The notes beneath the pieces were generated by a model. The model ran no database searches, was not told the origin of the DNA, and saw only the letters and a program-made list of their open reading frames with translations. Below, one piece after another: positions 1-34,886 of a stretch of DNA of 39,278 nt. Within the stretch, counting starts at the first letter, position 1; the number at the start of each line of letters is the position of its first letter. This DNA comes from a virus (taxonomy: Duplodnaviria; Heunggongvirae; Uroviricota; Caudoviricetes), in IMG/VR virus record IMGVR_UViG_2690316285_000009; one strand, given 5' to 3'. Position numbers and translations under genes: made by a program.

Positions 1-50
1 GCGTCACGAGCATCAGTTTTAGCTTCACCGGCGTATAGCGCGGCGATTTT

Positions 51-116
51 TTTGATACCGATTTGCATTTCATTTGATACCGCTGAAAAACGCCGATACG
101 CAACTTATTTGATACT
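51..116. repeat. Array of three TTTGATAC(C/T) motifs (51-59, 73-81, 108-116) at the phage right end; putative transposase end-binding sites
   Basis: Same 9-mer recurs three times within 70 bp and its reverse complement GGTATCAAA/AGTATCAAA recurs three times at the other window end; about 11/20 positions outside the outermost copies also match between the two ends. Confidence 0.6.
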
Positions 117-161
117 AAATCGGCGCTTTTCTTTTGAGTTTTAGAATGAGTTTTTAAGCGT

Positions 162-899
162 TCATTCACTCTCTTTCAAACCAGTTTTAACTGTTTGTGG
201 TTTTGGGTAAGGCTGGACTTTGAATAGCTTTGTGTTAAGGCGTTTTCTGGCTCTCTTGTCCAGAAACCGGATGTAACGAAACTGACGGAATTTATGAACA
301 CTGGCTCTGTCGATATTAGCCCGCAGATGTTCACCTCGCTGTCCTCCTCGTTTGATTGCATTCTTGCAAATCTCGTGATACCACTCGCCATCAAGTTCAT
401 AGAATGTTGTTTCATGACTGCCTACATAATCAAAATTGCTTGCCTGGTACACGACACCAAGACAGCCACAACGCTCATCTGCAAACGACTGAACCCACTG
501 CACCTGCGGATAAAGTTGTCTGATTAGTTTGAGCGCGTAACTGATTGCCCTTGATTCGGAGTTTCTCGGCATACAGTCATGCAGCCATAACCGGTTAAGC
601 TCCATATATTCGCGGTTCTGCGTGCCAGTTACGACGCGTGCACCATTGTTTGGATTAAGGGCATAACCCCATTGCATTACGCCAACCAGCTCCCGTTCTG
701 AAAATATGCCCAGATGAAGGTAGGAATTATTTACGAAACGATGGCTGTAATGTTTATTGACGACGACCAGCCGGGCCAGCCAGCAACTTATTGTCTCAAC
801 CCGTAACTCACGGGAGCCATAACCGACGATATTGTCGTTATAGTGAATAAGTTCAGGCGTGCTGATGATACGGGATGTAACTTGCTTTCTGTTCCCCAC
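162..899 (-). CDS. mom: Mom-like DNA modification protein; start codon uncertain (proposed GTG at 899, the ORF extends upstream to 1094)
   Basis: Terminal position next to com as in phage Mu; 5-prime end overlaps the com 3-prime end; AAGGA sequence 9 nt upstream of an in-frame GTG at 899; size about 245 aa is near the Mu Mom size as I recall it. Confidence 0.7.
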
Positions 900-1053
900 G
901 ACAGGATTTCCTTGTGTATGTGGGGTGCTCTGTGGCGCTCTGAGATGTGATTTGATTGAGGGTTTTACAGCGCGGACATTTAACTTCCAGATAACTGAAG
1001 CTGGCTCGTGCCAGTAGCTTGTTACAATGTCGGCACCGTATGTTTCGATACAT
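853..1053 (-). CDS. com: Com-like zinc-finger translational activator of mom
   Basis: Translation contains [10 protein letters not shown]...VKCPRCK, a C4 zinc-finger pattern matching the Mu Com layout; AGGAGG Shine-Dalgarno (plus coords 1064-1069) about 10 nt upstream of the ATG at 1053; overlaps the mom 5-prime end. Confidence 0.8.
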
Positions 1054-1098
1054 GGCCGCATAACCTCCTGCTTTGTTGTTGATATCTTTATCACTCAA

Positions 1099-1120
1099 TC
1101 GATCGACAAAAACGATCGAT
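1099..1120. promoter_or_regulatory. Two GATC-containing palindromic boxes (TCGATCGA and CGATCGAT) upstream of com; candidate Dam-sensitive regulatory site of the mom operon
   Basis: Sequence caatcgatcgacaaaaacgatcgatt read directly; a third GATC at 1183-1186; lies just upstream of the com RBS. Confidence 0.4.
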
Positions 1121-1309
1121 TTGATTTATTTAATTGATACAACAAATAACACGAAATGTCATTAGCGAAAATTTATGAGTTTGATCACTAATTTTAAACG
1201 GTGCTGTAACGCATAAGTGCTGAATGATTGTACATTTGAATACCGCAAAGCAAACAAATCAACTAATTTATAGAAGTCAATTGGTTAATTGCCAGCGTAA
1301 GAGGCTGCT

Positions 1310-1603
1310 ATGGACAATCATGTAACGACGAGAAATCGAAAAATGATTGAAAATGCGGAAATCTATAATGATTATTTTTCCGATTATTCAGATGCCTGCA
1401 AATACAGTTCGAGTGCGGGAGAGTTCATATGCTTCAACTTTTTTATTAAATCTTATGTTTTTCCTCCACAGCAAGAAGATGGAGGTGTGCCACCTCCTGA
1501 AATCACTTTGCACCGTATAGCCTCCGTCTCAATGATGGAGCAACAGGCTAATGAGCTGTATAGCATTCTGGGAACGATTCTACAAAAGCGTGAATCGGAC
1601 TAA
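1310..1603 (+). CDS. Hypothetical protein (97 aa) in AT-rich cargo DNA, opposite strand to phage genes
   Basis: ORF with AAGAGG Shine-Dalgarno 6 nt upstream of ATG; markedly AT-rich relative to the phage backbone; no recognisable motif. Confidence 0.45.
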   Translation: MDNHVTTRNRKMIENAEIYNDYFSDYSDACKYSSSAGEFICFNFFIKSYVFPPQQEDGGVPPPEITLHRIASVSMMEQQANELYSILGTILQKRESD

Positions 1604-1770
1604 TGATACCGGTTCATTTGCCTGCCCGGATGGGGAAGCAGGATTGACTGCTCCATAAGCAGCTATATTTCTGAATACGAAATACTATCCAGCGATTACA
1701 TATGGCTGGATAGCGGCAAAGATGTTTTCATTAGTGTCAAACCGGCAGAGGACACCACCGGTTTGTATTG

Positions 1771-2025
1771 TTACATCATGGTACTGTCAGTTCCGGGCTG
1801 AGCCGGGTCTGGTTGCTCTGGCTGCGCGTCGGTTTTCGGCTCATTATCAGCATCACTGGCCGCAACTGCTGGCCCAATAAGTTTTGCCAGCACTTCATCA
1901 ACGTAAGTGTCGATTTGTGCCTCAAAATCCTTGCGGACCTGCGCTTTCAGCAACTTATTTACTTCACCGGAATACAGTGCCTGTTTTACCAGGTCTTCAG
2001 TGACGGTGCCTTTAATTTCTGGCAT
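1771..2025 (-). CDS. Hypothetical acidic protein (84 aa) with a low-complexity D/E/P/Q-rich C-terminus
   Basis: Strong AAGGAGG Shine-Dalgarno 7 nt upstream of ATG at 2025; downstream of and co-oriented with the small membrane-protein gene. Confidence 0.55.
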   Translation of the reverse strand: MPEIKGTVTEDLVKQALYSGEVNKLLKAQVRKDFEAQIDTYVDEVLAKLIGPAVAASDADNEPKTDAQPEQPDPAQPGTDSTMM

Positions 2026-2060
2026 GTATATCCTCCTTATGCGGGAATAAAGCCCTGCAA

Positions 2061-2243
2061 TCAGGGCTGGGTCGGGTCTTTTGGGAGCGGAGTTACCTGC
2101 GCTGTTTTACGGAGTTTTTCAGCTGCTGCGTCCTCAATTTTGCGGCGAACATAATTTCTGATGGCCTTATAACCACCACTCACCAGATATAACGCACATA
2201 CTGCCGTGCAGAAATACAATAAAATAAGCTGTAAAAATGTCAT
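2061..2243 (-). CDS. Small membrane protein (about 60 aa, one predicted transmembrane helix followed by a basic/charged tail)
   Basis: GGGAGGG Shine-Dalgarno immediately upstream of internal ATG at 2243 (the ORF track starts at 2255); hydrophobic stretch LQLILLYFCTAVCALYLV. Confidence 0.5.
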   Translation of the reverse strand: MTFLQLILLYFCTAVCALYLVSGGYKAIRNYVRRKIEDAAAEKLRKTAQVTPLPKDPTQP

Positions 2244-2339
2244 TATCCCTCCCAATTATTGACATGGTGTTGACACCGGTAATATCTGTTAGGTAAAAAG
2301 GTGCACTGCATTTTTTGCTTTGGATATAACGATCTTTTT

Positions 2340-2381
2340 GCCGCCGGTTTCTTGTTTTCCCTTACCGGCGGCATTTTTTTA
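2340..2381 (+). terminator. Intrinsic-terminator-like hairpin functional in the plus direction (9-bp GC stem GCCGCCGGT/ACCGGCGGC followed by a 7-T run)
   Basis: Read directly from sequence; on the minus strand the hairpin is followed by an A-run, so it is not a canonical terminator for the esterase gene that ends at 2388. Confidence 0.5.
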
Positions 2382-2387
2382 TCCTGC

Positions 2388-4442
2388 TTACGCGTTATTC
2401 ACTTCCACCACGATACTGTCAATCAGTACCGGGTAAGTCGCATTTTTAGTGATATCGGTCACGCGCAACTTGTCTGCCGTAAACGTGCCGACCGGAGACT
2501 GCGACAGCATGAATGGTGTCCCGTCCTTACCATCAATGACCGGCGTCACCTCAATACTGTTGTTACCGGCAAAACGGAAGCCCAGCGTATGCCATTCGTT
2601 ATTAAATGCGCCGAATGACCCCAGCTTCGTGTTCTGCGCCGTGTTTCCTTTGTGATACATCACGTTAAGGTCTGTGGCATCGCTCTGTACGTAGAACGAT
2701 GCCAGCAGGTTATGACCGGCATTTCCTTCCAGAGTAACCCCTTGCGGCAGGGCAGAAACCGGCCAGTACAGCGCCAGTGCGTACTGATTAGCCGTAAGCG
2801 CGCCATCGAGTTTAAAACGACAACTGACAAGACCACCTTTACCCAGCAGGTCCGCACCATTACCAGCATCATGCTCAAGGTACCAGGGGGCTCTTCCTGT
2901 TTCCTTGGTCAGTTTCATTGCCTTACCCCCGCTGGCTCCGGCATCATCCACGATTTGAGCCTTGCCACCTCCGGCAGCCCAACCCTGTGGTGTCAACCGT
3001 CCTTCAGACTCAGATGCCCGGTAAGCAAATAGCGTACTCATCGTCGTGGTGTCTGCGGGTGGCGTGGACGGTTTTGATGGTGTATCAGGTGACGGCTTCT
3101 CATCCGGTGGTGTCACGGTCTGCCCGCGCATCAGTTCAGCCGTGCGCCCTGCATGGAGCATAATAGCTGAGGCCAGACGGTCTGAAATGACGCCCCTGCG
3201 TGCCCATGAGCTGAAATGGCTGTCACGCTGTGTCGAAACAAAACTGCCCTGGGTTCGGGATGCTGCACCGTAATACCCGACAGCCACAATATCCGGGTCT
3301 TCCGCCGGAGCATTCGTTGGCGTGCTCTGTCCATTCTCATCCGTCAGGAACGGTACAAAGAAAATTTTCTGTGCTTCCTTGCCTTTGTAGCCACCGTATA
3401 CTGCCTCATATTTATCGGTGCCAGCGTTTTTCCAGTAATACGTGGTATCACCGCAAATCCACGGCACCGTGGTGGCATTTCCACTCACGCACTGCGCAGC
3501 AAGCGGAGCCTGGTCAGTTCTGAACTGCTGAACCATGGCCGTGAATAAACTATTATGCTGCTGGCTTCCTGAGGCAAGGTCTGCCTCTCCCTGCATCCAG
3601 ACCACAGCCAGAAGTTTGTTTTTCGGGTTTTTCGCCAGCGCGACTTTGGTGCGGCTTACCAGGTCCTGATACAGAGGTTTACCGGCCCCCCAGCGTGAAG
3701 AATCAGCGGAAGCACCGCTGGCCTCACTGAATGAGCCGTCGGCTCCAGTGGTGAATGCTGACCCGCCACGACAACAGGGCACCAGAAGTATCCCGGCATT
3801 CTGTGGGATATAGGGAAGCAGTTTTTTGGCAATATGCAACCCCTGACCGACAGTCCCGTACTGGCCTTTTGCCAGATCAGCTTTCGGGTGGTTTATCCCG
3901 CTCATATCCTGAACATCATGCAGGCAGTGGTCTGCCGGAATGATGTCGTTGTATGTACACGACGTACCGTTGGGCGTTACCGTACTGCGGCGTGCCAGTT
4001 GCTTAATGCGTGGGTCCGGGCGGTCAAACGAATCCGGTAACGGCAGCCCCTCGCCGTAGGCCATGCCATTTGACTGACCCGCGAGAATGACAACAAAGTA
4101 ATATTCCGGCTCTGAACTGCTGCCATTCGTGCTACCGGAAGGCCCGGCGTTATCCGGTGCATTCCAGTCGGAGGGCGTGAGCGTTCCGGCCACGTCAGAT
4201 GTGATTGGAATGATGCCAGTCACGCCTGAACTGGTGATTTCTGCACTGGGATTACCGGATACCGGCATTACCCATAATGGCTCTTTCGTGCTGAAGCGGA
4301 TCACGCAGTCTGCGAAGGTGATCCCCCCTTTATTACCCGAAGGGCGGAAAGGGCTTTCAATAAATGCCACCGTGCCACCGGCAACCTTGACTGAAAACTC
4401 TCCGGGCATGGCGGAGAGCATTTTCCACTTGGAGTCTGACAT
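2388..4442 (-). CDS. Multi-domain SGNH/SASA-family carbohydrate O-acetylesterase (684 aa): N-terminal domain, esterase core, Pro/Thr-rich linker, C-terminal roughly 200-aa domain of unknown type
   Basis: Motifs in the translation: VVILAGQSNGMAYGEG (GQSN catalytic-serine block), VVWMQGEADLASG (QGE block), RDSHFS (D-x-H block) in the order expected for SGNH/SASA esterases; linker PPDEKPSPDTPSKPSTPPADTTT; no N-terminal signal peptide. Confidence 0.7.
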   Translation of the reverse strand: MSDSKWKMLSAMPGEFSVKVAGGTVAFIESPFRPSGNKGGITFADCVIRFSTKEPLWVMPVSGNPSAEITSSGVTGIIPITSDVAGTLTPSDWNAPDNAGPSGSTNGSSSEPEYYFVVILAGQSNGMAYGEGLPLPDSFDRPDPRIKQLARRSTVTPNGTSCTYNDIIPADHCLHDVQDMSGINHPKADLAKGQYGTVGQGLHIAKKLLPYIPQNAGILLVPCCRGGSAFTTGADGSFSEASGASADSSRWGAGKPLYQDLVSRTKVALAKNPKNKLLAVVWMQGEADLASGSQQHNSLFTAMVQQFRTDQAPLAAQCVSGNATTVPWICGDTTYYWKNAGTDKYEAVYGGYKGKEAQKIFFVPFLTDENGQSTPTNAPAEDPDIVAVGYYGAASRTQGSFVSTQRDSHFSSWARRGVISDRLASAIMLHAGRTAELMRGQTVTPPDEKPSPDTPSKPSTPPADTTTMSTLFAYRASESEGRLTPQGWAAGGGKAQIVDDAGASGGKAMKLTKETGRAPWYLEHDAGNGADLLGKGGLVSCRFKLDGALTANQYALALYWPVSALPQGVTLEGNAGHNLLASFYVQSDATDLNVMYHKGNTAQNTKLGSFGAFNNEWHTLGFRFAGNNSIEVTPVIDGKDGTPFMLSQSPVGTFTADKLRVTDITKNATYPVLIDSIVVEVNNA

Positions 4443-4513
4443 CGTCTTTTCTGCCTGTTTCTGAATTAAACAGAGTCAGAATAGCGACCGCTGAAAAATA
4501 TGTGTTTTGCGGA

Positions 4514-4547
4514 AATTCAAAAAAGCGTCACGGTACTTTTGGTGACG
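4514..4547 (-). terminator. Rho-independent terminator at the 3-prime end of gin
   Basis: Stem CGTCAC/GTGACG with 10-nt loop followed, on the minus strand, by a 6-T run; the gin stop codon lies inside the stem. Confidence 0.6.
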
Positions 4548-5100
4548 GAGCTGGTGAGGCAGGAAAATAACGATAAAGGGTGGAAAGGCCAATATCAAAT
4601 ATCAGTGCGATTTGTTTACGGGACTCGCCATTAGCCAGCAAACGGGCGATTTGCTCCCGCTCTTTCTCTGTCAGTTTCTGAGGTCTGCCGCCATGACGCC
4701 CCTGAGCACGGGCAGCAGCAAGACCCGCGCGTGTACGTTCAATAATGAGTTCCCGCTCCATTTCCGCCAGCGCGCCCATTATATGGAAAAAGAAACGTCC
4801 CATGGGAGTGGATGTATCAATATTGTCCGTAATGCTGCGGAAGTTAACGCCGCGTTGCCGGAGTTCTTCTGTTAAAAGGACAAGGTGCTGCATACTGCGT
4901 CCAAGGCGATCCAGTTTCCAGACCAGCAGGGTATCCCCTGGCCGGAGTCGCTTTAATGCGCGTTTAAGTCCGGGACGCTCCCTTGTCTTACCGCTTATTC
5001 TGTCTTCGAAAAACAGCTCACATCCTGCACATTCCAGCGCATTTCTTTGTAGCGCCGTATTCTGGTCATTTGTTGACACCCTGATATACCCAATCAGCAT
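4528..5100 (-). CDS. gin: Gin-type serine DNA invertase
   Basis: N-terminus MLIGYIRVSTNDQ with the catalytic serine context typical of Hin/Gin/Cin resolvase-invertases; C-terminal helix-turn-helix; sits next to an invertible segment bounded by gix-like sites. Confidence 0.9.
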   Translation of the reverse strand: MLIGYIRVSTNDQNTALQRNALECAGCELFFEDRISGKTRERPGLKRALKRLRPGDTLLVWKLDRLGRSMQHLVLLTEELRQRGVNFRSITDNIDTSTPMGRFFFHIMGALAEMERELIIERTRAGLAAARAQGRHGGRPQKLTEKEREQIARLLANGESRKQIALIFDIGLSTLYRYFPASPAPSPKVP

Positions 5101-5164
5101 ACGATTTCCTTATTATAAAAAGCCGGAATTGTCGCATGAGGAATAAAACAGAGTTAATCCTGGC

Positions 5165-5192
5165 TTTCCTGAAAACCTCGGTTTACGGGAAA
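5165..5192. other. gix-like recombination site (left)
   Basis: TTCCTGAAAACCTCGGTTTACGGGAAAC closely resembles the phage Mu gix sequence as I recall it (AAACCTCGGTTTAC core); located at the outer edge of the left inverted repeat. Confidence 0.75.
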
Positions 5193-5246
5193 CGGTAAAC
5201 AGGGCGGCGAATGCCCTGCCATCGGACGGCACCGCCGTTGCCGCGA
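5178..5246. repeat. Left copy of a 69-bp perfect inverted repeat flanking the invertible segment
   Basis: 5178-5246 is the exact reverse complement of 6427-6495 (checked base by base). Confidence 0.9.
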
Positions 5247-12179: not shown

Positions 12180-14288
12180 TCACATCCAGGCCATGCTGTG
12201 CGGTATCATCCACATNNNNNNNNNNNNNNNNNCCACATCAATACTGCGCGCCCGCCAGCCTTCAGGGGCCACAAGCTCCACCCGTGCGGCGGTTTTCGCG
12301 GTGGCCTGTCCGCCGTTTTCGTCACTGCTGCCACGCAGTTTCTGCCAGGCCTGCGTCAGCCAGCCCCCCNNNNNNNNNNNNNNNNNNNNNNNNNNNNNNN
12401 NNNNNNNNNNNNNNNNNNNNNNNNNNNNNNNNNNNNNNNNNNNNNNNNNNNNNNNNNNNNNNNNNNNNNNNNNNNNNNNNNNNNNNNNNNNNNNNNNNNN
12501 NNNNNNNNNNNNNNNNNNNNNNNNNNNNNNNNNNNNNNNNNNNNNNNNNNNNNNNNNNNNNNNNNNNNNNNNNNNNNNNNNNNNNNNNNNNNNNNNNNNN
12601 NNNNNNNNNNNNNNNNNNNNNNNNNNNNNNCCGGCACCACGGAACAGCCCGGCAAAACGCCCCAGCCCCATGCGGTTTCCGGCCGCCGTTAGCAGACCAC
12701 CGGCACGGCTCATCATACGACCGAAGAAGCCCTGTTTACCGGCACTCTCCGCCAGTTGCTCACCGGCAGTCACGACGGTCGTGACACCCCGTCCACGTCC
12801 GGGGCCGCGTTTTTTACGGCCGCGCACGGTTTTGCCGTCACCGCTGACCACCACATCCCCGCCACCTGAGGCCAGGCCACCCGCAGGCCAGTTGGTGACC
12901 AGCACGGGCTGAACGGCAGCCGGATTTACCCCGGTAAGGAAATTCAGGAACCGGCCAGCGCGTCCGGGCTGCGTTCCCGGTACAGTGGTCTGCGGTTTGC
13001 GGAAGGGCGACGTCAGCACGGAGGTCATCGCCATGCCATAGCGTAAGGGGGTTGCGCCGAGACGTAATGCCCCCGTCCCCGCAAACCTGAGCACCTTCAG
13101 CGCACGGGAGGCGAGATACATATACATCAGGTACTTTGCGGCGGTCTGCGCACCCTGACCAATACGATCCAGTGCATCGCCATAACCGGCGTCGCGCAGT
13201 GCCTGAAGCGTTTCCCTGACTTTCTGAATGGCCCGGTAAAAGCCGGTTGCAGCGTCTCTGGCATACTCGAATCCCTGATTCAGGGCTGAGGCCGTCTGTG
13301 TGGCCAGCTTATCCTGTAAGCCGCTTTTCTGTGCCGCATCAGCATAATCCAGAAAGCCTTTCAGGCTCTTTTTCAGGCTGTCAAACGGTCCCTTTGCCAT
13401 CACCTCGCGGGCAAATCCGTCCCAGACATCGCCCATCATGGACGTCATTCCCGTCCAGGAATTCATGGCGTTTTTCTGGGCACCTTTTGCCTGTTCGGCC
13501 ATCACCTGAAATAACAGGCGAATGCTGTCCGGTCCCAGTTTTCCTTTCTCGCCTTTCTCACGGATGATCTTCTGGTTTACACCCAGCTTATCGGCCAGCA
13601 ACTGGTAAACGTTAATCCCGTATCCGGTCAGAATATTGGCGTCCGCTGCCTGGATACTCTGGCGGGCAAACATCTGTTTGAGTTGCAGGGACGCACCCTG
13701 TGCATCTGACAGTGACCAGCCGTGATAGCCGCCCTGATCCTGAAGCATGGTAATAAAGCGACGGGCTTCCCTGTCACTCATACCGAACCCGCGACTGGAG
13801 GCGTATTCCTGCATAACCCCCGCCAGCCCCCAGGTGGTGTCTTTGGCGTTCTGTACCGCCCAGGCTTTCACTGCTTCCGTTTTTGCCGTATCGCCATGAT
13901 TAATGGCGTTGAGACGCAGAATATAGTTCTCCATCTCTGCGGCCGGGCGGATAAAGGCTTTATTAAACCCGTAGACCGCAGCCCCTCCCGCCAGCATCCC
14001 GTAAAGGTTGCTTATCCGCCCGATGGTGCCGGTAATGCTGCCCTGAAGGCGGTCAAAATCTGACGTCACCGTGCGGATACTGCCACGAACACCGGCAAGC
14101 GTTCGCTGCATACGGGAGCCGACAAGTTCTGTCTCCTGACCGGCACGACGTGCTGCATTTCCAAGACCACCCAGCCCCGTCCTGCCGGAACGGGAGAATG
14201 CCCCCAGCTCCTGTGACCACTGGCGGGATTTGGCAGAAATATTGCCGAGTAAATCGACAATCAGGGAGGCTTTCAGGTTTTTTGCCAT
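12180..14288 (-). CDS. Tail tape measure protein (interrupted by N-runs at 12216-12232 and 12370-12630)
   Basis: 702-aa Gly/Ala-rich product with long predicted helical N-terminal part and Gly-rich C-terminus; position between chaperone-like gene and N. Confidence 0.75.
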   Translation of the reverse strand: MAKNLKASLIVDLLGNISAKSRQWSQELGAFSRSGRTGLGGLGNAARRAGQETELVGSRMQRTLAGVRGSIRTVTSDFDRLQGSITGTIGRISNLYGMLAGGAAVYGFNKAFIRPAAEMENYILRLNAINHGDTAKTEAVKAWAVQNAKDTTWGLAGVMQEYASSRGFGMSDREARRFITMLQDQGGYHGWSLSDAQGASLQLKQMFARQSIQAADANILTGYGINVYQLLADKLGVNQKIIREKGEKGKLGPDSIRLLFQVMAEQAKGAQKNAMNSWTGMTSMMGDVWDGFAREVMAKGPFDSLKKSLKGFLDYADAAQKSGLQDKLATQTASALNQGFEYARDAATGFYRAIQKVRETLQALRDAGYGDALDRIGQGAQTAAKYLMYMYLASRALKVLRFAGTGALRLGATPLRYGMAMTSVLTSPFRKPQTTVPGTQPGRAGRFLNFLTGVNPAAVQPVLVTNWPAGGLASGGGDVVVSGDGKTVRGRKKRGPGRGRGVTTVVTAGEQLAESAGKQGFFGRMMSRAGGLLTAAGNRMGLGRFAGLFRGAXXXXXXXXXXXXXXXXXXXXXXXXXXXXXXXXXXXXXXXXXXXXXXXXXXXXXXXXXXXXXXXXXXXXXXXXXXXXXXXXXXXXXXXXGGWLTQAWQKLRGSSDENGGQATAKTAARVELVAPEGWRARSIDVXXXXXXMWMIPHSMAWM

Positions 14289-16783: not shown

Positions 16784-17094
16784 CAGGACGTCCCCTTGTC
16801 TGATGCTGCGGGTTTTTCAGTCGCGGGTTTTTCAGTCGCAGGTTTTTCTGCTGCCGCTCCCGCGGGTTTTCCGGCGGCATCAGTCGTTGCAGACGCTGCT
16901 GCCGGNNNNNNNNNNNNNNNNNNNNCCGGTGCTGCTTCAGCCGCTTTTTCCACCACAATGACGTCCCCGTCATTAAGACGGCGGCACCAGAACGGGGTGA
17001 AGGGTTTTTCCTCTCCCTCCTGCGCCAGCGGTTTCATGGTGTCCGGATCGCGGATCAGGCATCCCGGCGCGGGTTTGATAAAAATGGTTGTCAT
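16783..17094 (-). CDS. Small tail-region protein with C-terminal EKPAT tandem repeats (interrupted by N-run 16906-16925)
   Basis: 15-bp tandem DNA repeat at 16810-16855 encoding ..EKPATEKPATEKPA.. Confidence 0.5.
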   Translation of the reverse strand: MTTIFIKPAPGCLIRDPDTMKPLAQEGEEKPFTPFWCRRLNDGDVIVVEKAAEAAPXXXXXXXPAAASATTDAAGKPAGAAAEKPATEKPATEKPAASDKGTS

Positions 17095-20542: not shown

Positions 20543-20719
20543 TCCGGCAGCATAAGCCGGTGTTTTTCGGGGCCGGTTTTGCGGGACTTCAGAAAGTGCT
20601 GACAGGGGAAAAATGAGAAAGGCGCTTCACGCAGATTTTAAAGCCCGTTAAATACAGGTTAGAAAATCACGACACGCGCCTGAAGAGGGTAAGGTAATGC
20701 GTTTGTATACCTTAAACCA

Positions 20720-28262: not shown

Positions 28263-28704
28263 GACCGGGGAGTTTTACCCCCTTTGAATAAATCCAGCGG
28301 ATATACTGCTTACAGGACGCGGGCATCTGCCCGGCATTGATAAGGCGCAGGAGCGTGGAGTTGCGAAAGTTCGTTTCACCGGCCCAGAAAATCCAGGAGG
28401 CCAGCGCCACCGTCTGACCACGGGTAAGCGGCACCTGAACATGACGATCGATAGCCGCAAAGGCCCATTTCATGTCCTTTTCCAGCAGCTCCAGACACTC
28501 TTCATCAGTTTTTGTCATCCCCGGTTTCACATCCGGGCCGGTATGGCCGTAACAGATGGTGGGGGTGCCGGTGGGATCAATGTACGTGGTGTTTTCTTTC
28601 CCTTCCCAGTAGCCGGTGTAGTGCGTGGCAATAGTGAACGTCCCGGCTCCGGCCAGAACAAGGGCAATCAGCTTTTTACGCAGTGGCGCGGGGAGTTTTG
28701 GCAT
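28204..28704 (-). CDS. lys: Endolysin, T4-lysozyme-type (GH24) with N-terminal signal-anchor-release-like segment
   Basis: Lysozyme-like catalytic region (..TICYGHTG..EECLELLEKDM..) preceded by a weakly hydrophobic Gly/Ala-rich N-terminus (LIALVLAGAGTFTIA). Confidence 0.85.
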   Translation of the reverse strand: MPKLPAPLRKKLIALVLAGAGTFTIATHYTGYWEGKENTTYIDPTGTPTICYGHTGPDVKPGMTKTDEECLELLEKDMKWAFAAIDRHVQVPLTRGQTVALASWIFWAGETNFRNSTLLRLINAGQMPASCKQYIRWIYSKGVKLPGLEARRSADEWLCRYDLPKV

Positions 28705-28775
28705 TGTTACGCTGTCTCATGGTGTTCTCTGAGCCAGCGTAACCGTGGGAAAAAGGGGGCAGGATTTGCGGAATA

Positions 28776-29198
28776 TCAGAAAAGCCGGGGCTGCGTGCGC
28801 TCCTGATGCAGGCGACGCTGGTTGCGGATAACGGAGTAAATCTGCGTCTCTGACATCTGGTAATGGCGGCGCAGGGTTTCAATTTTTTCGCCCTGGCTCC
28901 AGCGGGAAAAAATTTCATTATTGCGCAGTTCGGTGAAAAGGGATTCACCGACCGGGAGATAATAACCACGCCCGCCCATGTACCCGGCCTGTGCGGCTGC
29001 AACCTTACGGGCAAGCATTCCCGCCTGAGCAGGTTCAATCCCCTGACGGTGCAGTTCAGCACTGATCACATCAACCAGGTCCCGCAGCGTGCCGGGCCAG
29101 TTCTTTTTCAGCTCATCATCAGGAATATCATCCAGACGGTCAATCAGCGCGTGCAGCTGTTCGCTGTCACCAAACATGCTCATCTGTGTTTCAGCCAT
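28776..29198 (-). CDS. Mor/C-family transcriptional activator (single copy)
   Basis: 140-aa product with C-terminal helix-turn-helix; position between the GemA-like gene and the lysis/late genes, as for Mu mor/C. Confidence 0.8.
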   Translation of the reverse strand: MAETQMSMFGDSEQLHALIDRLDDIPDDELKKNWPGTLRDLVDVISAELHRQGIEPAQAGMLARKVAAAQAGYMGGRGYYLPVGESLFTELRNNEIFSRWSQGEKIETLRRHYQMSETQIYSVIRNQRRLHQERTQPRLF

Positions 29199-29268
29199 AC
29201 CCGCCTCCGGTCATCATTACACAGGGCAAGTTTAAAATAAAAATCCCGCGCTGTGGCGGGATTTGGGG

Positions 29269-29781
29269 TTAAAAGGGGGAGGATTCTTCATACAGCCTGC
29301 AAACGCGCTCATAACTCATCACTGTACGCGCTGACATCCCCAGCACATCCAGCATCTTGCGGCGGTGCCAGCGTTTGAGACGCTCCAGCACATCAGAGGC
29401 CAGCGCGGGGTGTTGTTCCAGCCACTGCCAGTTAGCCACACCTTCGCCGCCGTTCTGAGCGACCGTCTGCGATTTCACCCAGCGGTTAAGGGCTGTTTCC
29501 CCGCCATCAGAGATAAAGCCCTGCCGGTGCATCACCTTCCAGATGGCGCGAATTTTGGCGGTCACCGTACCCGGTTTTAAGGCCCGGTTAACCGGCTTCT
29601 GACGCACTTTAAAACCGCGTTTTTTGAAAACATCCAGCACGCGGGATAACTCATCCGGTGACATATCCCGGCAACTGGGTTTGCCGGTGGCTGCCAGTAG
29701 TACGGATGTGTAGGTCTCATGGTCAAGCTGTAGATCGCGTTTTGCGACATGTATTAAGGTAATCAGGGAAGCGCGATTCAT
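29269..29781 (-). CDS. GemA-like early protein (Mu gp16-like)
   Basis: 170-aa product immediately upstream of the Mor/C-family gene. Confidence 0.55.
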   Translation of the reverse strand: MNRASLITLIHVAKRDLQLDHETYTSVLLAATGKPSCRDMSPDELSRVLDVFKKRGFKVRQKPVNRALKPGTVTAKIRAIWKVMHRQGFISDGGETALNRWVKSQTVAQNGGEGVANWQWLEQHPALASDVLERLKRWHRRKMLDVLGMSARTVMSYERVCRLYEESSPF

Positions 29782-34622: not shown

Positions 34623-34886
34623 TTAGCTGACTTGTTTCGCACCAACAGAACGGCATATTCCGCTGTAAACTTCTGTCGCACCTTCGCGATCAAGTCCGGC
34701 AGATATCACCATTCGTGTGCGGTCATTAAATTCAAAAAGTAAATCGCCACATTCTTTATTTTCGGCCAGTGAAATCACCTTCACGTTATCGAAATTAACC
34801 AGGTAAAAGCGTCCGTAAATATCAGGAATATTAAATNNNNNNNNNNNNNNNNNNNNNNNNNNNNNNNNNNNNNCCGCCATAATCAC
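34623..34886 (-). CDS. Hypothetical early protein (interrupted by N-run 34837-34873)
   Basis: ORF immediately downstream of B; N-terminal part unreadable. Confidence 0.4.
   Translation of the reverse strand: MIMAXXXXXXXXXXXXXFNIPDIYGRFYLVNFDNVKVISLAENKECGDLLFEFNDRTRMVISAGLDREGATEVYSGICRSVGAKQVS

Follow-up and report, generated by a model that had tools for sequence, protein, structure and literature searches.

The com-mom locus and its paired GATC sites

The 39,278-nucleotide (nt) stretch analysed here (IMG/VR record IMGVR_UViG_2690316285_000009), referred to throughout as the window, is a Mu-like transposable prophage of E. coli read from its right end, and this study concerns a pair of GATC sites located directly upstream of its com and mom genes, which lie on the minus strand. 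Mom protects DNA against many restriction enzymes, and mistimed expression of it is toxic; its multilayered control in phage Mu, where Com is the translational activator of mom, is a textbook case. By its sequence, the prophage is kin to the Mu-like prophages in O157:H7 genomes, and it has been annotated as an inserted Mu-like phage within Stx-phage records. Its end is located at about position 34, and matches in many E. coli chromosomes start at window positions 24-34, at differing chromosomal sites.

The features at the locus are listed below in window coordinates, with lengths in amino acids (aa) and base pairs (bp). L001 denotes the Mu reference sequence (AF083977), and GATC sites and the inverted repeat carry no strand assignment.

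162-899, minus strand: mom, encoding a 245-aa adenine-modification enzyme (Pfam PF25680, Mom; E-value 1.6e-77)
853-1053, minus strand: com, encoding a 66-aa zinc-ribbon protein (Pfam PF10122, Zn_ribbon_Com; E-value 7.5e-13; also the RefSeq annotation of identical prophages)
1064-1069, minus strand: ribosome-binding site of com, AGGAGG, from the sequence
1101-1104: GATC-b, counterpart of Mu GATC III, inside TCGATCGA (1099-1106); 51 nt upstream of the com ATG; aligns with L001 1691-1694
1114-1117: GATC-a, counterpart of Mu GATC II, inside CGATCGAT (1113-1120); 64 nt upstream of the com ATG; aligns with L001 1678-1681
1097-1121: perfect 9-7-9 inverted repeat, AATCGATCG-N7-CGATCGATT, formed by both boxes and unchanged in diverged E. 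coli relatives
1183-1186: third GATC, TGATCA, 133 nt upstream of the com ATG

The com ATG is found at 1053-1051 on the minus strand, and the mom DNA is about 72% identical to that of Mu. The mom frame also stays open for 65 more codons 5′ of its annotated start, running through com to position 1094 (162-1094, minus strand) as a 310-aa open reading frame (ORF), an extension that is probably due to chance.

The original prediction, made from the sequence alone, described paired GATC palindromes upstream of com, and both boxes are present. The distance of 12 bp that it gave between them fits no measure, with 6 bp separating the boxes, their starts lying 14 bp apart and the GATC cores 13 bp apart, and it missed the perfect inverted repeat that the boxes form together, the arms of which are themselves palindromic. 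TCGATCGA is a single-copy sequence in the window, while CGATCGAT has a second copy at 28445. The third GATC that it named is indeed found at 1183, but is not part of the conserved element. This site was rejected as a part of the switch, given that it lies outside the conserved module, falls in no good OxyR half-site and is surrounded by sequence that is unrelated in most relatives. The chance of one GATC within ~80 bp corresponds to p ~0.2, so that its presence agrees with chance.

The proximity of the two GATC sites is not unusual for this DNA. GATC is slightly under-represented in the window (113 observed vs ~146 expected), and four of the 112 gaps between neighbouring sites measure 13 bp or less, against about four expected. 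Within-window GATC statistics were dropped as evidence because such gaps occur at the expected frequency. The specific arrangement GATC-N9-GATC occurs once, compared with ~0.3 expected anywhere in the window, and the chance of finding it within the given 100 bp upstream of com is ~8e-4; the motif ATCG-N7-CGAT likewise has exactly one occurrence. The real evidence for the pair is its conservation rather than the statistics of the window.

A predicted OxyR operator and its conservation

On the minus strand, the GATC pair reads G-ATCG-TTTTTGT-CGAT-C, which corresponds to an OxyR dimer consensus with a GATC over each end. The consensus, reportedly that of Toledano et al. from 1994, is ATAGnTnnnAnCTAT, and the sites predicted on its basis are as follows.

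1102-1116, minus strand: predicted OxyR half-site 2, ATCGTTTTTGTCGAT; matches 7/10 specified positions of ATAGnTnnnAnCTAT; GATC at both ends
1133-1147, minus strand: predicted OxyR half-site 1, ATTTGTTGTATCAAT; matches 7/10; 31 bp upstream of half-site 2; without GATC
1102-1147, minus strand: whole predicted OxyR operator, both half-sites at 7/10 with a 31-bp offset; 49-94 nt upstream of the com ATG

Two spacings were considered for OxyR, namely 22 bp for the oxidised and ~32 bp for the reduced protein, and a half-site spacing of ~32 bp has been ascribed to reduced OxyR (PMC2909390). The region 1102-1147 is the sole site in the window where both halves match at 7/10 or better with a 31-bp offset. 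In this extended register, Mu has matches of 7 and 7 at 31 bp, agn43 has 8 and 8 at 32 bp, and P22 gtr has 10 and 8 at 32 bp, its half-site B matching ATAGnTnnnAnCTAT at 10/10. In the compact 22-bp register (1102-1138), compared with the 37-mer consensus, the site scores 13/20, which is tied for best among ~78,000 window positions, and the same register scores 13/20 in Mu and 14/20 in agn43. Scanning the offsets upstream of the GATC pair gave a sharp peak at 31 bp, where 14 of 16 com-mom sequences score 6-8/10 (at 32 bp in one of them), these 16 sequences representing ~13 distinct sequence families that are not independent. Other offsets mostly have means of 2-3/10, with lesser peaks of ~4.4 at offsets 18, 22 and 27, and the peak falls at 32 bp in agn43 (8/10) and P22 gtr (10/10). 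The locus contains two consensus-matching half-sites at a spacing used by OxyR.

The only other window site with 13/20 on the 37-mer (2275-2311) directly precedes the DUF1378 gene (2061-2243, minus strand), and a GATC is found at 2331; this OxyR-like site may be there by chance. No IHF-type WATCAANNNNTTR sites were seen by eye.

For comparison with phage Mu, facts were drawn from later open papers and from the Mu GenBank annotation. In region I of the Mu mom region, OxyR is described as binding three GATC sites unless these are fully methylated (Bolker & Kahmann, 1989; Hattman & Sun, 1997; both as cited in PMC3378877 and PMC2909390). The Mu reference contains GATC sites upstream of com at 1660, 1678 and 1691, followed by the C dyad TTATgccccaATAA at 1697-1710, a -10 hexamer TAAGAT at 1735-1740 and the com ATG at 1769. 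Since the Mu transcription start (+1) corresponds to L001 position 1747, as fixed from the position of the mom reverse primer in PMC3378877, the three GATC sites are located at -87, -69 and -56. The Mu C site, centred at -43.5, is downstream of them (PMC2582627).

In both phages, com and mom are found at the right end of a Mu-type genome, and their upstream sequences are homologous. The window sequence ATCAATTAAATAAATCAAATCGATCGTTTTTGTCGATCGATT aligns with CGATCGAATCAATTAAATCGATCGGTAATACAGATCGATT of Mu over ~40 bp without a gap, from the upstream ATCAATTAAAT stretch through GATC II and III, and because this ungapped alignment retains an identical 13-bp spacing, the window pair is the counterpart of Mu GATC II and III. 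An alternative alignment with a 9-bp insertion upstream of GATC II relative to Mu was replaced by this simpler one after the 31-bp register had been seen. The upstream half-site of Mu, ATAGAAAACGACGAT, matches at 7/10, and Mu shares with the window both the half-site offset of 31 bp and the OxyR score of 13/20. The Mu and agn43 operators differ from that of the window at the 3′-end of the upstream half-site, where they have GATC I in the form CGAT/C and half-site 1 reads CAAT/T. The OxyR-bound region of Mu has three GATC sites and the predicted operator of the window has two, GATC I having been lost (CGATC to CAATT), and the GATC at 1183 is not homologous to it.

A second difference concerns the distance to the gene, which the original prediction had rightly suspected to be shorter than in Mu: GATC III is 51 nt from the com ATG in the window, compared with 78 nt in Mu. 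The ~27 bp missing from the window correspond to the Mu segment with the C-binding dyad (TTAT-N6-ATAA), the -35 hexamer and a T-run. Whereas the Mu operator, at about -99 to -54, precedes the activator site, the predicted operator in the window most likely overlaps the promoter or the transcript start.

The 13-bp GATC spacing is also found in the GATC-II/III pair of agn43 and in both pairs of P22 gtr, and the latter provides a precedent for an operator with two GATC sites. The OxyR(BC) repressor site of P22 gtr comprises one half-site without GATC and another with a 13-bp GATC pair, it overlaps the TCGATC -35 hexamer, and it is no longer bound by OxyR once Dam-methylated (PMC2909390). As in gtr(BC), the window has one GATC-free half-site and one with a 13-bp pair, and its promoter-proximal GATC is contained in TCGATC, which is the -35 hexamer in gtr. 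The gtr promoter is TCGATC-17-TACACT, with +1 located 33 nt after GATC4 (PMC2909390), and in the window the distance from the GATC to the predicted start would be ~32-33 nt if the downstream of the two candidate promoters described below were used. The gtr(BC) site also demonstrates that two GATC sites suffice for methylation to block OxyR. The two systems differ in that a third half-site (A) of gtr, which carries a GATC pair of its own, allows two alternative OxyR positions and phase variation. No third half-site with a GATC pair was found in the window, where the best candidate is at the wrong offset, lacks a pair and is not conserved. The half-site offset also differs (32 bp in gtr, 31 bp in the window), and the controlled genes are unrelated.

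In the Dam/OxyR phase-variation operator of agn43 (flu) in strain MG1655, the GATC-II/III pair is found inside one OxyR half-site, and the core TATCGATCGTTTATATCGATCGATAAGC closely resembles AATCGATCGTTTTTGTCGATCGATTGAG of the window. The upstream half-site overlaps a -10-like hexamer in both, and a single operator serves as the repressor site in agn43 (PMC2909390). Differences from the window include the three GATC sites of agn43, its strong upstream promoter (TTGTCC-17-TAGAAT), the location of its operator downstream of +1, and a half-site offset of 32 rather than 31 bp.

Conservation among relatives follows the limits of the predicted operator, which coincides with a block (1097-1148) that the E. 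coli relatives have kept. For most relatives, homology extends no further than 1148-1162, and the third GATC at 1183 lies beyond. A search of 5,426 complete E. coli genomes detected a 56-bp block (1095-1150) at ≥90% identity in 233, among them many O157:H7 strains. In the aligned diverged E. coli relatives, both half-sites are invariant while the flanks on both sides diverge, and the three polymorphisms found (1128, 1126 and 1122) are all in the spacer between the half-sites. All 43 com-bearing viral contigs (L031-L073) have a single GATC-N9-GATC, immediately upstream of com, and this arrangement is found at the same place in Mu, in the E. coli relatives and in loci L012, L013, L023 and L024. 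In mom loci without com, GATC-N9-GATC is absent at the corresponding position. Loci L011 and L015 have their last GATC replaced by CTAT, the OxyR consensus itself, which argues that OxyR recognition, and not merely methylation, is what is conserved. Taken across com-mom operons, these comparisons show the predicted Dam/OxyR operator to be the most widely conserved layer of mom control, with a fixed geometry of a 13-bp pair and a half-site 31 bp upstream.

A non-functional relic of a Mu-type operator, or a chance cluster of sites, would agree with the insignificance of GATC proximity in the window, with the missing GATC I and C-site segment, and with the variation among relatives in the downstream -10-like zone. 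Such a relic would not be expected to retain invariant half-sites while the flanks and the inter-half-site spacer change, nor would the short-spacing lineages (L012 and L056-L058) be expected to keep the pair and the upstream half-site amid very different surrounding sequence. We regard this explanation as very unlikely. We consider it likely that the GATC pair is instead the core of a functional, Dam-methylation-sensitive OxyR operator (1102-1147) controlling com and mom. The Mu-like switch with a host repressor that was originally proposed is in this respect supported by comparison, through the alignment with Mu GATC II/III and an OxyR match on a par with those of the proven operators of Mu and agn43.

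Promoter placement and the late activator

Two candidate promoters for com were identified.

1079-1106, minus strand: candidate promoter A (downstream, Mu- or P22 gtr-like); -35 TCGATC (1106-1101, containing GATC-b), 16-bp spacer, -10 TATCAA (1084-1079)
1134-1162, minus strand: candidate promoter B (upstream, agn43-like); ATGACA (1162-1157), 17-bp spacer, TATCAA (1139-1134)

Candidate promoter A has a weak position-weight score and an alternative -10 hexamer, TAAAGAT (1090-1084); yATCAw is kept at the position of TATCAA in four sublineages. Candidate promoter B scores better, with 7.7 in the window and 5.9 in relatives, and is conserved, and its -35 hexamer is located at the edge of the conserved block; if it is used, the GATC pair would lie at about +11 to +26. 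The best candidate in the position-weight scan is the upstream one in the window, and the downstream -10 hexamers in L044, L057 and L058. For either candidate, the predicted operator would overlap the promoter or the early transcript, and the GATC pair is inside the operator.

The com-mom operons compared here have two architectures. In the long one (Mu, D108-like phages, L013, L023, L059, L061 and L076), an activator dyad is found between the operator and the -10 hexamer, whereas in the short one (the prophage family of the window, L012 and L056-L058) the operator abuts the gene. Good -10 hexamers (TATACT, TATAGT and TAGATT) start 11-13 nt past GATC III in L056-L058 and L012, and the operator must therefore cover the -35 region in these lineages.

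The window carries a single activator gene of the Mor/C family (28776-29198), the product of which is 40% identical to Mu C. A putative late-promoter box, TCCGCAAAWCCKGCCCC followed ~14 nt later by TAyGCT, is common to the promoters Plys and PI, with 0 and 1 mismatches. The box is found at 28756-28772, 20569-20585 and 29253-29269 (minus strand), these including a weaker copy with 4 mismatches upstream of the activator gene itself, a location that may point to autoregulation or to a cascade with middle and late steps merged. A third late promoter (PP) was not found in the window, where N runs (12216-12232 and 12370-12630) may hide it.

The original prediction also envisaged control by the late activator C, and this part is not supported by the sequence upstream of com. 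The Mu C-site segment is missing, the Mu C dyad (TTAT-N6-ATAA) is not present upstream of com, and the best match to the Plys/PI box there has 8/17 mismatches, which is the random level; at no more than 4 mismatches, the minus strand of 1-5200 contains no copy of the box. The inverted repeat itself could potentially be bound by a phage regulator (the Mor/C-family activator or another phage dimer), in which case the GATC sites would be incidental. A perfect dyad is typical of protein-dimer sites, the dyad bound by Mu C immediately precedes the mom promoter (PMC2582627), and an activator with 40% identity to Mu C could differ from it in specificity. The Plys/PI box is quite different, though, being G+C-rich and absent upstream of com, the motif ATCG-N7-CGAT is found just once in the window, and the same GATC pair persists in phages whose activators are very different, such as Mu and D108-like phages. 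The repeat was rejected as a late-activator site on the first two of these grounds, and a phage-regulator site of any kind is most improbable.

Hairpin formation provides another potential role for the repeat, as a weak plus-strand intrinsic terminator against antisense transcription into com-mom or as a stem-loop in the 5′ leader of the com mRNA. A terminator scan flags the plus strand, with a stem at 1097-1121 of 9 bp, 4 of them G-C pairs, and the tail TGATTTATTT. As RNA, the sequence folds with -11.2 kcal/mol on the plus strand (z -3.6) and -12.6 kcal/mol on the minus strand (z -2.1), and with candidate promoter B the hairpin would occupy about +5 to +35 of the transcript. The Mu pair folds similarly, however, and the hairpin can be seen as a by-product of having two sites, because any two neighbouring CGATCG-type palindromes will pair. 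There is also no plus-strand gene upstream to terminate, only antisense mom and the prophage end; no more than 4 G-C pairs hold the stem together, and its loop measures 7 nt. The lineages conserve the GATC sites and the OxyR-consensus positions, not the stem length or the T tract, and we retain a hairpin function only as a minor and very unlikely alternative.

Dam methylation could also act without OxyR, either by a direct effect on RNA polymerase binding through the GATC in the -35-like TCGATC and its partner, or by SeqA binding to the hemimethylated pair after replication and transiently silencing com-mom. Two GATC sites about one helical turn apart are, as is generally known, a SeqA-type target, and GATC-b is located within the candidate -35 TCGATC. 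A direct methylation effect on gtr promoter activity, possibly through GATC4, has been described (PMC2909390). What such an effect leaves unexplained is the GATC-free half-site 31 bp upstream, the replacement of a GATC by the OxyR-consensus CTAT in L011 and L015, and the homology to the OxyR-bound region of Mu. A Dam-only or SeqA effect could work alongside OxyR; as the explanation of the pair, it is unlikely. Each of these alternatives accounts for less of the conservation pattern than an OxyR operator does.

In the predicted operator, an OxyR tetramer would occupy both half-sites, the GATC-free ATTTGTTGTATCAAT (1147-1133) and the GATC-ended ATCGTTTTTGTCGAT (1116-1102). Full Dam methylation of both GATC sites would exclude OxyR and allow com-mom to be transcribed, while unmethylated or hemimethylated sites, for instance just after replication, would leave OxyR bound and RNA polymerase blocked. 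The operator most likely lies over the core promoter, because there is no late-activator (C) site between it and the gene. With either candidate promoter, occupancy of 1102-1147 by OxyR would shut out RNA polymerase or stop early elongation, so that repression would occur by direct occlusion and not by interference with an activator. The OxyR/Dam layer is possibly the main transcriptional control here, the activator site being absent, and Com-dependent translation of mom has presumably been kept. In these details, the promoter-overlapping and activator-independent arrangement is a tentative proposal, with chances that come close to even.

Several points weigh against an OxyR operator of this kind. 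Only two GATC sites are left, whereas Mu and agn43 each have three. The consensus for OxyR is degenerate, and scores of 13-14/20 count as good only when set against the background and the Dam-sensitive sites already known. Close relatives make up many of the loci in the comparison, and the conservation counts are not independent. Neither of the two candidate promoters is strong, and the scan prefers different ones in the window and in the other short-spacing lineages. As the activator box was defined from Plys and PI only, a very divergent activator site could be missed. Finally, the sign of the effect is taken from Mu, agn43 and gtr(BC), and OxyR adjoining a -35 hexamer can also activate, as at OxyR(AB) of P22 gtr.

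Surrounding genes and biological meaning

In Mu, gin adjoins com, whereas in the window gin (4528-5100) is separated from com by ~3.4 kb of cargo that comprises a SASA/DUF6645 esterase gene, a DUF1378 gene, a DUF826 gene and a small plus-strand ORF. The cargo genes between gin and com on the minus strand are as follows.

1771-2025, minus strand: DUF826 gene
2061-2243, minus strand: DUF1378 gene
2388-4442, minus strand: NanS-like SASA/DUF6645 esterase gene

Genes of these three types are usual in Stx and lambdoid phages, within their late regions. Divergent from com lies a gene that belongs to the variable cargo. In the window, it is an 86-aa ORF without a Pfam match (1343-1603, plus strand), and in most E. 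coli relatives (L004-L007, at ~2031-2495) it is an unrelated gene of ~154 aa. The ATG of the latter is found 5 nt past a -10-like AGTCAT, with a -35-like TTGATA inside OxyR half-site 1, and this divergent gene could be leaderless and transcribed from a momP2-like promoter under the same operator. Elsewhere in the window, N runs at 12216-12232, 12370-12630, 16906-16925 and 34837-34873 (335 bases in total) hide parts of the tape-measure/N region, a tail gene and the B-gene region.

The mom loci without com, which encode Mom proteins ~66-70% identical, have a tRNA-Gly(UCC) gene ~120-280 bp upstream of mom. This gene is located at 633-706 in L093, where mom starts at 899, and at 1010-1084 in L095, 1006-1079 in L101, 918-991 in L104 and 1006-1079 in L108, where mom starts at 1201 in each case. 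It occupies the place of com and the GATC operator of Mu-type phages, and its placement agrees with a recent RefSeq name for Mom, 'tRNA(Gly)-dependent adenine aminoacyltransferase Mom'. These observations suggest that mom phages without com bring their own substrate tRNA.

The kind of element described here is known from Mu mom, agn43 and gtr. New are the presence of two GATC sites, the lack of an activator site, the probable location of the operator over the promoter and the occurrence of this arrangement in a widespread E. coli prophage family. We found no paper describing the mom control region of Sp18-type prophages. Should the element act just as in Mu, it would be a routine homologue. 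A speculative and rather unlikely outcome is that, in this prophage family, losing the activator site and GATC I converted the late-lytic mom control of Mu to an epigenetic switch standing by itself, of the kind known from agn43 or gtr(BC). If this were true, a weak sigma-70 promoter would drive com-mom without any need for the phage late activator. With both GATC sites methylated, the operon would be ON; with OxyR keeping them free of methylation, it would be heritably OFF. A lysogen population would then be a mixture with respect to the Mom-type adenine modification of its own DNA, and possibly also with respect to the expression of a divergent cargo gene sharing the operator. Phase variation of Mu mom has never been determined (PMC2909390). 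A common E. coli prophage family that kept the operator and lost the activator site provides a natural system in which the OxyR/Dam layer is separated from the C layer, and it raises the question of whether a DNA-modification enzyme is expressed, perhaps heterogeneously, from the resident prophages of pathogenic E. coli.

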